A stretch of 64,000 bases of DNA from Escherichia phage Pu-Krd-SF1. A program made the position numbers and the translations under genes. The first letter of the stretch is position 1. Every line of letters starts with the position of its first letter. The DNA lies in the sequence record PQ249395; one strand, given 5' to 3'. Below are positions 32,968 to 42,373 of the stretch, piece by piece. The notes below the pieces were generated by a model that saw only the letters and a list, made by a program, of their open reading frames with translations, ran no database searches and was not told the DNA's origin.

Positions 32968-33258
32968 GTGAAATTGGAGAATAAAATGAAAACGTATCAA
33001 GAATTTATTGCTGAAGCTGCTTTTAACGAAAAAGTAAAAATTAGCAAAGCTGTCAAGACTTTGATTGCTGACATCAATTACCTATATGATATTGATTTAA
33101 CTGACTATGTAACAGTTGGTAACAAACGTAACTTTTTCGTGTTTGACATCTCTGAACTTGGCCAGAATCAAATTAACAACATTGAGCGTTTTGCTAATGA
33201 TAAGGGTCTTCGTCATGAGTCAGCGGGTTATAAAAAATACGCAATTTATTTAAAATGA
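32968..33258 (+). CDS. ipI: internal protein I-like, capsid-targeting leader MKTYQEFIAEA
   Basis: 96 aa; conserved N-terminal leader of T-even internal proteins; position after 57B. Confidence 0.65.
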   Translation: MKLENKMKTYQEFIAEAAFNEKVKISKAVKTLIADINYLYDIDLTDYVTVGNKRNFFVFDISELGQNQINNIERFANDKGLRHESAGYKKYAIYLK

Positions 33259-33288
33259 GTTTACTTTTAAATAGGGTTGTGGTACTAT
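33259..33288 (+). promoter_or_regulatory. early promoter (GTTTAC-N18-TACTAT)
   Basis: Consensus-like elements upstream of 33319. Confidence 0.55.
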
Positions 33289-33318
33289 TATCTCATCAAA
33301 ATTAATTAGGAAAATAAA

Positions 33319-33627
33319 ATGAAAACATTTAAAGAATTTATCAATGAAGCGGCTGCGCCAAAGACATTCGTTATTAATACTCAGACGAGTCTTGACGATG
33401 AGTATGCAGAGGCAATTCTGAAGTCACTTGCTAAGAACGGCGTTGAAGTAATCGCCTCGGACTTTAAGAAAGGGGCTTCCGAGATGTTTATTTCTATAAC
33501 TAAAGGATCTAAAGCTAAAATCAAATCATCATTCGGAGTTGCTCGTACCGATCAAATTGACAATCATGACTTTAAACAAACTGGCGTTAAACGGCAGAAC
33601 ACAATTGCATCACGCGGAATAAAATAG
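33319..33627 (+). CDS. internal-protein-like, leader MKTFKEFINEA
   Basis: 102 aa with capsid-targeting-like N-terminus. Confidence 0.55.
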   Translation: MKTFKEFINEAAAPKTFVINTQTSLDDEYAEAILKSLAKNGVEVIASDFKKGASEMFISITKGSKAKIKSSFGVARTDQIDNHDFKQTGVKRQNTIASRGIK

Positions 33628-33639
33628 TTTATAAAAACA

Positions 33640-33669
33640 GTTTACTTTTAGATAGGGTAGTGATACTAT
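33640..33669 (+). promoter_or_regulatory. early promoter (GTTTAC-N18-TACTAT)
   Basis: Shares the 18-mer GTGATACTATTACCCTATCAA with the promoter at 32920. Confidence 0.55.
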
Positions 33670-33697
33670 TACCCTATCAACTACAGAGGAGAATAAA

Positions 33698-33880
33698 ATG
33701 AAACGTTGTGAATTAATTCGAAATGTTGCTATTGCAATTTCTGCTTCCGCTTTTAGTTTTTCAATGTTTGTTGGATTTATATGCGGATTATTAACTACAG
33801 CAGAAAATGTGTTTTCACTTGTAGTAGCATTTTTAATTGGTTTAATCGCTATCGTTATGGATAAAATTTCTAAAGGTTAA
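33698..33880 (+). CDS. small membrane protein (2 predicted TM helices)
   Basis: 60 aa, strongly hydrophobic; RBS GAGGAG. Confidence 0.4.
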   Translation: MKRCELIRNVAIAISASAFSFSMFVGFICGLLTTAENVFSLVVAFLIGLIAIVMDKISKG

Positions 33881-33882
33881 TA

Positions 33883-34170
33883 ATGATTCTTTATGCGAAA
33901 GTATCGTCCGTTGAAAATGGATATAAATATGATCAAGATGCGGCTAAAGCCTTGATTGATGATTATGGCATTTTAACATGTTTTGAAGTTGAAAAGGTTT
34001 ACATTGACCGTTCATCTTCTCAAGTTAAATTAGTAAAGGAAGACCGTAAATTTAATACAGTAAATTTTGATTTCTTTATTGAAACAGAAAAAGGTCCTCT
34101 TGAATATGATATTTTCAAGAATCCTTTGGGTCTTGAATGCATCGTAAATATGTATTATCATAAATGGTAA
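33883..34170 (+). CDS. hypothetical protein
   Basis: 95 aa ORF in operon context. Confidence 0.4.
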   Translation: MILYAKVSSVENGYKYDQDAAKALIDDYGILTCFEVEKVYIDRSSSQVKLVKEDRKFNTVNFDFFIETEKGPLEYDIFKNPLGLECIVNMYYHKW

Positions 34171-34280
34171 ATATGCTTTAAGAATTATTTGTTATTATTA
34201 ACTCATACCGCACTGATTAATACCCTCTATCATCAAGGGTTCTTGTTAGAGAGCCTTTGTTAATAATTGGGAATTATATT

Positions 34281-34889
34281 ATGGATACTAAATTAGCTGA
34301 AATTTTTGAAGGAAAACATCCAAATTTTAGTACAGGAAAGCTGAAAGACAAAATAATAAAAGAAAATATTTTTCCATATGAGTGTGCAATTTGTAAAATT
34401 TCAAAATGGCAAAATAAGTATATTGTTCTGCAATTAGACCATATTGATGGAAATAACAAAAATCATCTTAAATCTAATTTAAGATTATTATGTCCAAACT
34501 GCCATTCGCAAACTGATACTTTTGCTGGTAAAAATATTAAAAATAATAAAAAGCGTTATAATGTTAGTGATGAAGAAATTTTAAACGCGCTATTAAATTC
34601 GGCTACTATATCATCTGCAATTACTTCATTAGGTTTAAGTAAAGGCGGAAACTATAAAAGATTCATTAAAATTGCTAATGATAATAAATTATATCATTTA
34701 CTGGTAAATATTAATGAAAAGATTTTAACTGATGAAATTTACGAAGAATTAGTTAAAATCGATTATTCTAAATTTGGATGGGTTAGTAAAGCTGCTAAAA
34801 TAATAGGTATAAGCCCACAAAAAGCTAGAAAATGGATAGAACGAAAGTGTCCAGAATTGATAGAACAGTCTTTTTCACGTAATAAATAA
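34281..34889 (+). CDS. HNH homing endonuclease-like protein
   Basis: CAIC…LDHIDGNNKNHLKSNLRLLCPNCH HNH motif; start taken at MDTKLAEIF. Confidence 0.7.
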   Translation: MDTKLAEIFEGKHPNFSTGKLKDKIIKENIFPYECAICKISKWQNKYIVLQLDHIDGNNKNHLKSNLRLLCPNCHSQTDTFAGKNIKNNKKRYNVSDEEILNALLNSATISSAITSLGLSKGGNYKRFIKIANDNKLYHLLVNINEKILTDEIYEELVKIDYSKFGWVSKAAKIIGISPQKARKWIERKCPELIEQSFSRNK

Positions 34890-34895
34890 TATAGC

Positions 34896-34982
34896 GCGAG
34901 AATGGTCAAATTGGTAAAGGCACAGCACTTAAAATGCTGCGGAATGATTTCCTTGTGGGTTCGAGTCCCACTTCTCGCACCA
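34896..34982 (+). tRNA. tRNA-Leu (anticodon UAA), type II
   Basis: Manual fold: acceptor GCGAGAA/UUCUCGC, anticodon loop CUUAAAA, long variable arm, GGUUCGAGUCC T-arm, encoded CCA. Confidence 0.8.
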
Positions 34983-40461: not shown

Positions 40462-40498
40462 TTTTATAAATACCTTCTATAAATACTTAGGAGGTATT

Positions 40499-40987
40499 AT
40501 GAATATATTTGAAATGTTACGTATAGATGAAGGTCTTAGACTTAAAATATATAAAGACACAGAAGGCTATTACACTATTGGCATTGGTCATTTGCTTACT
40601 AAAAGTCCATCAATAAGTGTTGCTAAATCTGAATTAGATAAAGCTATTGGGCGTAATTGCAATGGTGTAATTACAAAAGATGAGGCTGAAAAACTCTTTA
40701 ATCAGGATGTTGATGCTGCTGTTCGCGGAATTCTGAGAAATGCTAAATTAAAACCGGTTTATGATTCTCTTGATGCGGTTCGTCGCTGTGCATTGATTAA
40801 TATGGTCTTCCAAATGGGAGAAACTGGCGTGGCAGGATTTACTAATTCTTTGCGTATGCTTCAACAAAAACGCTGGGATGAAGCAGCAGTTAACTTAGCT
40901 AAAAGTAGATGGTATAATCAAACACCTAATCGCGCGAAACGCGTAATCTCAACATTTAAAACAGGAACTTGGAAAGCGTATATATGA
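40499..40987 (+). CDS. e: lysozyme (endolysin, gene e)
   Basis: 162 aa; near-identical to T4 lysozyme over most of its length ([38 protein letters not shown]…). Confidence 0.95.
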
Positions 40988-41265
40988 AAACATATAGTGA
41001 ATTTTTATCAGAATCTATTCTTAACGAAGCTACTGACACATTTGCAACTAAGCTAGGTGCAGCTTTGGTTGAAGCTGAAAGTCTATTAGCACGTATTTCT
41101 GAACTTGCTAGTAAGATAGATACTCGCAAATTTGAGCGCACCAGCGATATCGTTAAGCTTGAAGCATTGTTGCGTATGTGCGATAAACCGGAAGAAATCG
41201 CTAAGAACGGCTCGCTGATGAAACAACGTCTCGAAAAATATATTTCAGGCGCTTCAGAAAAATAG
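40984..41265 (+). CDS. internal-protein-like, leader [12 protein letters not shown]
   Basis: ATG overlaps e stop (ATGA); capsid-targeting-like N-terminus; possible ipIII/ipII counterpart. Confidence 0.55.
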
Positions 41266-41266
41266 T

Positions 41267-41296
41267 GTTTACTTCCTCCAAGGGTTTTGATACTAT
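41267..41296 (+). promoter_or_regulatory. early promoter (GTTTAC-N18-TACTAT)
   Basis: Consensus-like elements upstream of denV. Confidence 0.55.
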
Positions 41297-41323
41297 ACAT
41301 TCATCAACTACTTGGAGGAAATT

Positions 41324-41737
41324 ATGACCCGTATCAATTTAACACTTGTTTCTGAACTGACCGACCAACATCTTATGGCTGAGTATCGTGAATTACCACG
41401 CGTATTTGGTGCAGTCCGTAAACATGTTCAAAACGGTAAACGTGTAAAGGATTTTAAAATCTCTCCAACATTTATCTTAGGCACAGGTCATGTAACATTC
41501 TTTTACGACAAACTCGAATTTTTACGTTTACGTCAAATCGAGTTAATCGCTGAATGTTTGAAACGTGGTTTCAAAATCAAGGACACGACAGTCCAGGATA
41601 TTTCCGACATCCCTGCCGAATTTCGTAATAATTATGCCCCGTCCGAAGCGTCCATTGCGATAAGTCAAGCACGCTTAGATGAAAAAATTGCTCAACGTCC
41701 GACTTGGTATAAATACTATGGTAAATCAATTTACTAA
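41324..41737 (+). CDS. denV: endonuclease V, pyrimidine-dimer DNA glycosylase
   Basis: [12 protein letters not shown]…RPTWYKYYG closely matches T4 endo V as recalled; RBS GGAGGAA. Confidence 0.9.
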
Positions 41738-41743
41738 GGAAAA

Positions 41744-41929
41744 ATGAAAATGTATCAAGAATTTATCGTTGAAGCAGATGCCAAAGGTTCTAAATTTAAA
41801 GTTAAAGCTTTCATTGGTGATGCGGAAGACTTTGGCTCATTAAAACATAATGGGTATTCTTTCTTAGGTGGCGATGGTAAAGAAATCAAAACACCTATGC
41901 AAAACGTAGTGAAATTGCTTATGTTGTAG
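41744..41929 (+). CDS. internal-protein-like, leader MKMYQEFIVEA; short, possibly frameshifted
   Basis: 61 aa; a 41-codon open frame continues in +2 from about 41881 to 42005. Confidence 0.4.
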   Translation: MKMYQEFIVEADAKGSKFKVKAFIGDAEDFGSLKHNGYSFLGGDGKEIKTPMQNVVKLLML

Positions 41930-42009
41930 CAAGTCCTAAAGTAGATGTTGACGATATTGGATATGATTTTAACAACTTCGGAATTATTTCTGGCGGTAAA
42001 GCTTAAACG

Positions 42010-42038
42010 GTTTACGCTTAAGTATTAATATGGTAATA
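42010..42038 (+). promoter_or_regulatory. early promoter-like (GTTTAC … TAATAA)
   Basis: -35 exact, -10 weaker; upstream of 42071. Confidence 0.4.
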
Positions 42039-42070
42039 ATTACTCTATCAAAACAAACAAGGAAACAAAA

Positions 42071-42373
42071 ATGAAAACATATCAAGAATTTATTACTGAA
42101 GCGCGAGTGAGTGCAGGTAAATTAGAAGCCGCTATAAATAAAAAGGCCCATTCATTTCATGATTTGTCCGATAAAGACCGTAAGAAACTTGTAAGCCTTT
42201 ATATTGACAAAGAGCGTATTCTCGCTCTTCCTGGCGCTAATGAAGGTAAACAGGCCAAGCCTTTGAATGCTGTCGAAAAGAAAATTGATAACTTTGCTTC
42301 TAAATTCGGTATGTCTATGGATGACCTTCAGCAAGCGGCTATCGAAGCAGCTAAAGTAATTAAAGGTAAATAA
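42071..42373 (+). CDS. internal-protein-like, leader MKTYQEFITEA (ipII-like)
   Basis: 100 aa; capsid-targeting-like N-terminus. Confidence 0.6.
   Translation: MKTYQEFITEARVSAGKLEAAINKKAHSFHDLSDKDRKKLVSLYIDKERILALPGANEGKQAKPLNAVEKKIDNFASKFGMSMDDLQQAAIEAAKVIKGK

Follow-up and report, generated by a model that had tools for sequence, protein, structure and literature searches.

Six genes with a T4-type capsid-targeting leader in a T-even coliphage, one of them at a candidate third internal-protein site

The six leader-bearing genes

The stretch of DNA considered here, called the window below, comprises 64,000 nucleotides (64 kb) of Escherichia phage Pu-Krd-SF1 (record PQ249395), and it contains six genes that begin with the leader peptide of the phage T4 internal proteins (Ips). 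The first 10 residues of T4 IpIII (MKTYQEFIAE, also the N-terminus of T4 IpII) are enough to package foreign proteins into heads (PMC8442874), and a leader of this kind is referred to as a capsid-targeting sequence (CTS). An earlier note on this DNA had pointed out the six genes, identified their leader with the T4 CTS, and proposed that the virion may deliver an expanded and partly novel payload. The genes and the features discussed with them are collected in Table 1.

A six-frame scan of the whole window with the regular expression MK[T/M][Y/F]xEF[I/L]xE gave exactly six matches, all on the + strand and all at starts of open reading frames (ORFs; 32986, 33319, 36715, 40984, 41744 and 42071), against none in 100 shuffles; looser leader patterns brought in no additional window genes. 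The six leader-bearing ORFs are thereby confirmed, with one correction. The first had been placed at 32968, an in-frame upstream GTG; the true start is the ATG at 32986, which has GGAG 8 nt upstream and coincides with the GenBank start of the coding sequence (CDS), so that the protein has 90 aa and not 96. All six leader ATGs lie 0-14 codons past an in-frame stop and are preceded by GGAG, GGAA, AGGA or a similar ribosome-binding site (RBS). The GenBank CDS starts agree for five of the six ORFs. The 41744 gene is annotated from Met3 (window 41750), and its leader is therefore hidden in the deposited annotation.

Amber-suppressor mutagenesis of IpIII has traced targeting mainly to residues 4 and 7 (Tyr4, Phe7) and processing to residues 8 and 10; the protease gp21 cuts after the Glu of L/I-x-E, and Glu, not Asp, is needed at position 10 (PMC9026906). 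Every one of these determinants is kept in all six leaders, which have Tyr or Phe at residue 4, Phe at 7, Ile or Leu at 8 and Glu at 10, followed by Ala or Ser at 11. The gp21-type sites, in map order, are IAE↓A, INE↓A, LTE↓A, LSE↓S, IVE↓A and ITE↓A, and the identification of the leader with the T4 CTS holds, including the cleavage context that the earlier note had singled out as a check. The bodies behind the leaders are mutually unrelated, as had been claimed: once residues 1-11 are removed, all-versus-all BLASTP gives a best E of 0.04. The only body that matches a T4 Ip is that of 42071. With Pfam, none of the six gives a hit above cut-off or a recognisable enzyme domain. The mature forms have a basic pI of 8.9-9.7, except that of 40984.

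The window also encodes, at its left end, the head-core genes gp22, gp21, gp68, gp67 and gp20. Both the gp21 protease and the gp22 scaffold therefore lie inside the 64 kb (1065-2543). The former is the enzyme expected to cut off the six leaders, and Ips are known to co-purify with the latter (PMC9026906).

One might argue that the common 5' end is a property of the DNA, namely a cassette for recombination and translation initiation (promoter, RBS and first codons), in which case likeness of the leaders would say nothing about the destination of the proteins. The upstream regions of three of the genes do share early-promoter/RBS blocks with T4 ipI, ipII and ipIII, and gene shuffling via conserved regulatory cassettes is reported for T4-type phages (PMC2839356, PMC4122927); a cassette of phage Ozark, described below, stands between duplicated terminators. 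However, the other three genes (36715, 40984 and 41744) retain the peptide without the shared upstream block, and in T4 the 10 residues by themselves suffice for packaging. Conservation also tracks amino-acid function. Among 22 distinct leaders from five T-even genomes, six codons occur at position 5 and 11 at position 9, which are free, while positions 2, 7 and 10 are near-fixed and positions 3, 4 and 8 vary synonymously or conservatively. The peptide is kept with different codons in a homolog of the 36715 protein that is only 31% identical, and in more than 100 environmental T4-like ORFs. This pattern indicates that selection has acted on the peptide and not on DNA carried along with it. Shuffling and targeting are compatible, not mutually exclusive, and a purely DNA-level origin of the leader likeness seems very improbable.

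Table 1. Features of the window discussed in the text (window positions; ↓ marks a gp21-type site)
Feature	Position	Strand	Remarks
gp22 major scaffolding core protein	1065..1874	-	Pfam T4_CASP, E 1e-89
gp21 prohead core serine protease	1905..2543	-	Pfam Peptidase_S77, E 1e-111
Ip9-family internal head protein, 90 aa	32986..33258	+	leader MKTYQEFIAE↓A; first ipI-locus gene, directly 3' of 57B/Acb1
Ip7-family internal head protein, 102 aa	33319..33627	+	leader MKTFKEFINE↓A; second ipI-locus gene
Terminator hairpin AGCCCCGACCGAAAGGTTGGGGCTTTTT	36601..36624	+	intrinsic; after rnaD/rnaC stable-RNA genes; upstream edge of third-locus cassette
Late-promoter-like octamer GATAAATA	36673..36680	+	7/8 match to T4 late promoter TATAAATA; 42 nt upstream of 188-aa gene
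Unannotated CTS-bearing protein, 188 aa	36715..37281	+	leader MKTYAEFLTE↓A; candidate internal protein, third locus
Hairpin and T-run	37286..37312	+	closes third-locus cassette; conserved early promoter region of e.8 comes next
Internal head protein, 93 aa, RB69ORF127c type	40984..41265	+	start overlaps end of lysozyme e; occupies T4 ipIII slot
Frameshift-truncated internal head protein, 61 aa	41744..41929	+	leader MKMYQEFIVE↓A; remnant of 86-aa Ip
IpII (Ip2) ortholog, 100 aa	42071..42373	+	leader MKTYQEFITE↓A; 93% to T4 IpII

The region that holds the six genes (bases 32400-43100) is 100% identical to Escherichia phages Pu-Krd-SF5, SF6 and SF7 (PQ759885-7; Tequatrovirus), T4-like coliphages obtained from piglet faeces with E. 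coli B as isolation host, and many further Tequatrovirus genomes match it at 94-97% identity as mosaic pieces. The gene order is that of T4 read the opposite way: gene 3 (incomplete, at the start of the fetched stretch used for this comparison), 1, 57A, 57B, ipI locus, tRNA cluster, e.8-e.3, nudE, e, denV, vs.8. Two endonuclease genes (window 34257-36204) interrupt the tRNA cluster, one of the HNH type (34257/34278-34889) and one for a homing enzyme like segB (35540-36204). The tRNA set is Leu, Gly, Pro, Ser, Thr, Met, Tyr and Arg, compared with Gln, Leu, Gly, Pro, Ser, Thr, Ile and Arg in T4.

The two genes of the ipI locus belong to named Ip families. The 32986 protein is 94% identical to RB15 Ip9 (Q38376), matches PHROG 7673 ('internal head protein', E 3e-54) over its full length and carries the same name in GenBank; a sequence identical to the 33319 protein is named 'Ip7' in UniRef, and PHROG 2667 ('internal head protein') matches it at E 5e-41. 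The 5' untranslated region and first 7 codons of 33319 are almost identical to those of T4 ipI. Early-type promoter matches precede both genes (TTTACA-17-TACTAT at 32921-32949 and GTTTAC...TACTAT at 33259). Directly upstream of the locus, 57B (32452-32907) encodes Acb1, an anti-CBASS nuclease, according to its Pfam match (E 8e-60), although the GenBank record of the identical phage names it 'RNA ligase'; as a context clue, this neighbour would favour an anti-defence role for the Ips.

The body of Ip9 is also found outside the T-even phages. Residues 19-90 correspond, at 50% identity and with no leader, to a 72-aa ORF of Escherichia phage CR01 (L125:2501-2719), a 45-kb siphovirus of the Guernseyvirinae, where the ORF sits among small unannotated ORFs adjoining the replicative helicase gene. 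In the Salmonella Kuttervirus SeKF_19 the same body forms the C-terminal domain of a 759-aa protein (L126:455-2734), whose N-terminus, MAIPSFLNFLEES, is vaguely CTS-like. Because the body occurs leaderless in the one phage and fused in the other, it suggests that Ip9 may be a portable intracellular effector which T-even phages tag for delivery, and it is a second context clue in favour of an anti-defence role. The AlphaFold2 (AF2) model of Ip9 (pLDDT 77; alpha-beta-beta-alpha-beta-beta) has no neighbour in the PDB better than E 0.1 or TM 0.5, and the fold of T4 IPI* was likewise reported to be novel (PMC3012670).

The remaining three recognised genes lie between e and vs.8. The 40984 protein belongs to PHROG 3499 ('internal head protein', E 1e-46), and its sequence cluster includes RB69 and other 'internal head protein' entries. 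Its leader ends in LSE↓S, and two more sites, of the form L-x-E↓A, follow at residues 13-16 and 28-31. By eye only, unaligned and unscored, its body resembles that of the second Ip of phage T6, whose gene is at the ipI locus and has an IpI-type long leader; such a likeness would be direct evidence of exchange between Ip loci. Two copies of the late promoter TATAAATA, located at 40465 and at 40478, precede e and 40984. In the PQ759887 annotation, lysozyme e (40499-40987) is named 'baseplate hub subunit and tail lysozyme'.

The 41744 gene is a damaged copy. Compared with phage LF82-3, in which the 86-aa gene is intact, it has 2 nt (AA, in an A-run) inserted at 41888-41889, within flanking DNA that is about 97-98% identical, and the old C-terminal coding sequence runs on out of frame to about 42005. 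Searching with the 61-aa protein by tblastn gave 203 records, most of which match residues 1-50 only. Phage G2133 matches over the full 61 aa at 90% identity, which suggests that it shares the truncated form, and the frameshift therefore looks real and not a read error. This copy is thus disabled or altered, and of the 'at least six' genes in the earlier note six leaders stand but only five genes are intact. A late promoter TATAAATA at 41708, 36 nt upstream of 41744, would also serve 42071. The 42071 protein itself has 93% body identity to T4 IpII and falls into PHROG 7857 (E 5e-55); its sequence cluster is named 'ipII protein'.

The site behind the rnaC terminator

The 188-aa gene stands apart from the other five. 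Five of the six products bear the label of internal head or virion protein in the GenBank entry for the identical phage, five have body homology to Ip families (IpII, Ip7, Ip9 and PHROGs 3499 and 2667 among the grounds) and five lie in recognised Ip loci; in homology and in location alike the exception is 36715. Its product is called 'hypothetical' in all 163 phage records that contain it and falls into PHROG 2280, which has no assigned function. The mature form, of about 19.8 kDa and pI 9.5, is close to T4 IpIII (20.4 kDa, pI 9.65). That the gene is a displaced ipIII was considered and dropped, as there is no similarity between the two proteins. Apart from near-identical relatives, a search of 1.8 billion representatives returned a single distant homolog (P0072, 31% identity), encoded on a T4-like contig (L124). 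It retains the leader MITFNEFLNE↓S, 7/10 identical to that of 36715, and the octamer GATAAATA, unique within the window, recurs upstream of its gene at about equal distance.

The gene lies past the terminator downstream of rnaC, at a site that differs among close relatives. In a three-way alignment of the window, Ozark and T4, homology spans rnaD and rnaC up to AGCCCCGACCGAAAGGTTGGGGCTTTTT and then breaks. T4 has no insert at this point and runs straight into the e.8 promoter region; here a cassette of about 660 bp intervenes, which holds a spacer, an RBS and the 188-aa gene and is closed by a hairpin of its own. In Ozark (L127:15100-15960 against window 36560-37340) and UFV-AREG1 the cassette is another one, flanked on both sides by copies of the rnaC terminator, and the duplication looks like the footprint of an insertion by recombination at the stem-loop. 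Unlike Ozark, the present window has a downstream hairpin that differs from the upstream one. The Ozark/UFV-AREG1 cassette encodes an unrelated protein of 157 aa, which starts MKSYTQFLNE↓AVLNE↓A with doubled L-N-E↓A sites and is preceded, right past the terminator, by the canonical late promoter TATAAATA. This gene is found in 512 records, always as 'hypothetical'. Phages U115, PYps47T and EcNP1 have the 188-aa and 157-aa genes in tandem. Remote homology between the two proteins was considered and rejected, since their alignment is confined to the leaders.

All in all, the genes at this site each have a CTS-type leader and a late promoter or late-promoter-like element, their products are of about 16-20 kDa, and the 188-aa member is basic and predicted to be helical. 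We lean, if only slightly, towards the view that the site right past the rnaC terminator is a third, unrecognised Ip locus of the Tevenvirinae, empty in T4 and occupied elsewhere by the 188-aa gene, the 157-aa gene or both. Packaging of the 188-aa protein in the virion is judged slightly more likely than not, and the gene is probably expressed late. The Ip literature speaks of two Ip loci (PMC12373910). No mention of a third was found in the literature searched, and a search by leader and by name did not find the 188-aa and 157-aa families in the supplements of the screen of Ips against GmrSD (PMC12373910).

Alternatively, the 188-aa protein might not be a head protein at all, with a cytoplasmic late role or some other one and a fortuitous resemblance to the CTS; the true count would then be four intact Ips and one remnant. 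This would fit a gene that lies outside both recognised loci (PMC12373910) and a product that carries no Ip annotation in any of its 163 records and whose PHROG lacks a function. It would also fit the absence of a canonical promoter, the match being only 7/8 and a terminator standing ahead of the gene, and a weak structure model (all-helical with a disordered K/P-rich linker; pLDDT 65, pTM 0.32, low confidence). A PDB sequence search with the protein came back empty. On the other hand, none of the four functional CTS residues is missing from the leader and its cleavage site is present, it is better kept in P0072 than the protein as a whole, and GATAAATA is conserved in front of both genes. The allelic 157-aa gene combines a CTS-like leader and doubled cleavage sites with a perfect late promoter, and the leader motif otherwise occurs within the 64 kb only at the Ip genes. 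A chance resemblance is therefore considered unlikely.

If the proteins of this site are indeed packaged, many T-even virions would inject one or two proteins beyond the current count, and the Ip repertoire that has been screened for anti-defence targets would be incomplete. The overlooked locus would comprise two gene families in hundreds of sequenced T-even phages.

Number, delivery and function

The possession of six such genes is less unusual than it might seem. With a relaxed pattern applied to the equivalent regions of five genomes, the counts are 3 for T4, 2 for T6, 5 for Ozark, 6 for UFV-AREG1 and 6 for this phage; the census is a regular-expression count on the five fetched regions, and a per-genome BLASTN leader count undercounts. 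In a BLASTN search the leader turns up at 3141 places, which belong to 1322 phage records. The census bears out the statement that T4 has three such genes, and six is within the normal T-even range. At the sequence level there are indeed more leader genes here than in T4, as the earlier note had supposed, but UFV-AREG1 also has six, and of the 'partly novel' payload only the 188-aa gene is new as an Ip. In T6 (L123, AP018814 58000-80000) the whole denV / ipII-ipIII / vs.3-vs.8 block is missing and e directly adjoins regB, so that the T6 Ips are found only at the ipI locus.

Polymorphic Ips that share a leader, Ip4 to Ip13, were reportedly described in T-even phages by Repoila, Tetart, Bouet and Krisch in 1994 (EMBO J 13:4181). 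A later paper counts at least 10 Ips and credits that work (PMC12373910), and Ips have been characterized as a highly diverse set with the CTS as the only conserved part (PMC3012670). The general phenomenon is established T-even biology, and the headline is a rediscovery. What is new is the corrected coordinate of the first gene, the frameshift in 41744, and the unannotated CTS-bearing gene at the polymorphic site past the rnaC terminator.

With high probability, then, all six genes belong to the polymorphic Ip family of the T-even phages, that is, small and mostly basic cargo fused to a 10-residue CTS. According to this model, affinity of the leader for the gp22 scaffolding core would cause the protein to be built into the prohead, where gp21 would cut after Glu10 (I/L-x-E). 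The mature protein would stay in the head with the DNA and be injected at the next infection, ahead of phage gene expression. Once in the cell, each Ip would most likely neutralise one variant of host defence, and the prime candidates are the GmrSD type IV restriction enzymes, which attack DNA with glucosylated hydroxymethylcytosine. The set would be distributed over three hot spots of cassette shuffling: 57B/Acb1 to trna.4 (Ip9, Ip7), rnaC terminator to e.8 (the 188-aa gene), and e-denV-vs.8 (the 93-aa Ip, the truncated 86-aa Ip and IpII). The late-type elements, namely the copies of TATAAATA ahead of 41744 and e/40984 and GATAAATA before 36715, are sequence matches only.

The anti-restriction role mentioned in the earlier note for IPI* is well founded: IpI* inhibits the GmrSD of CT596, Ip2 that of ECOR21 and Ip3 that of ECOR17, with no cross-protection (Silas 2025; PMC12373910). 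Among the window proteins only 42071 is orthologous to a proven GmrSD inhibitor, and it should behave like T4 Ip2, judging from its similarity. None of the remaining five bodies is similar to Ip1, Ip2 or Ip3.

Several results weigh against this model, in addition to the imperfect promoter and the weak structure model of the 188-aa gene. In a screen of Ip4-10 (by name including Ip7 and Ip9) against 15 GmrSD groups, no reproducible new inhibition was obtained (PMC12373910), and a GmrSD target is therefore established for Ip1-3 only. The 40984 protein is not basic (pI 6.3), and 41744 is truncated. No late-promoter motif occurs within 150 nt upstream of 32986 and 33319, which have early-type matches instead. 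Finally, the literature searched yielded neither virion proteomics nor N-terminal data on this phage or on the 188-aa and 157-aa families.

Some of these facts would be expected if Ips were mainly structural, as has been suggested for IpIII: they would help to condense the DNA and to form the head, as basic counter-ions or assembly helpers, and their diversity would be largely neutral. The basic charge of five of the six mature proteins and the lack of reproducible GmrSD inhibition by Ip4-10 fit such a role, as do the roughly 1000 Ip molecules that touch DNA phosphates via lysines (PMC3012670) and the slower head assembly of IpIII mutants (PMC9026906). However, all three T4 Ips have specific anti-restriction targets (PMC12373910), and Ips are dispensable on laboratory hosts (PMC9026906). 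The leaderless Ip9 body of siphovirus CR01 argues for a function in the cell and not in a T4 head, and the rapid turnover in presence and absence beside Acb1 fits an arms-race locus. A mainly structural role is accordingly judged improbable, and delivery of anti-defence cargo remains the preferred explanation.

Leaders of the form MKT[FY]xEF[ILMF]xE extend far beyond the coliphages. A degenerate-pattern scan of IMG/VR gave at least 120 loci, mostly on environmental contigs, which is no census of T-even Ips; among the matches listed, 114 of 135 are at ORF starts (loci L003-L122; for instance L098:4048-4536 -, L055:6037+ and L017:3988+). The cargo at L098, on a T4-like phage contig (RegA, gp44), is a protein of the S-adenosylmethionine (SAM) lyase family (PF23780, E 2e-19). 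At least about 25 of the listed loci resemble this family by their N-terminal sequence; L098, the only one tested, gave a profile match. Other cargoes are an ART-PolyVal ADP-ribosyltransferase and a 2H/LigT/Acb1-like phosphoesterase. Adjoining the leader-tagged SAM lyase, the gene at L098:2882-4021 (-) has a product of 379 aa with a hit to the DruA (Druantia) domain (Pfam E 7e-9), a defence-system domain that is found here in a phage, beside a putative injected anti-restriction enzyme. The leader-tagged enzymes suggest that the capsid may deliver ready-made anti-defence enzymes, and no paper describing capsid delivery of such enzymes was found in the literature search.

Ips are the first phage molecules to face host defences, and knowledge of the full injected set of a therapeutic or field phage helps to predict its host range. 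For the present phage the curated list is IpII, Ip7, Ip9, the 93-aa Ip and one truncated copy, with no Ip1 and no Ip3. The general finding adds nothing to the anti-GmrSD picture.

Comparison with known systems

The closest counterparts are the polymorphic Ips of the T-even phages themselves. Ip9 and Ip7 of this phage (32986 and 33319) both belong to the ipI locus, with 57B on one side and the trna.x genes on the other, and have the leader and the early promoter/RBS blocks in common with the known alleles; there is no essential difference, only another combination of them. Compared with T4 IpII (NP_049734), 42071 has the same leader save for A9T, and both genes adjoin denV in the e-to-vs.8 region. 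The order here is e-ip-denV-ip-ipII, as against e-ipIII-ipII-denV in T4, with denV and two Ip genes between e and ipII.

The logic of the leader and the gp21 processing are also those of T4 IpI* and IpIII, and the 188-aa protein is IpIII-like in size and charge, yet the window has no homolog of the body of either IpI or IpIII. T4 IpI has its own 19-residue leader, cut at ITE↓A, unlike the 10-residue leaders described here. CTS-fusion cargo in T4 is said to go back to Mullaney and Black in 1996. Such cargo, as well as T4 Alt, illustrates that unrelated folds can likewise reach the head by means of a short propeptide cleaved by gp21 and then be injected (PMC8442874, PMC9026906). Unlike the small window proteins, Alt is a large ADP-ribosyltransferase, and both of its ends are processed.

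Lastly, the third-locus gene recalls the modular shuffling cassettes of T4-type phages (PeSLs; PMC2839356, PMC4122927). It is similarly discrete, with stem-loop terminators and a conserved early promoter at its borders, and its cassette is present, absent or replaced among close relatives. The flanking repeat differs in being a terminator hairpin after a stable-RNA gene.

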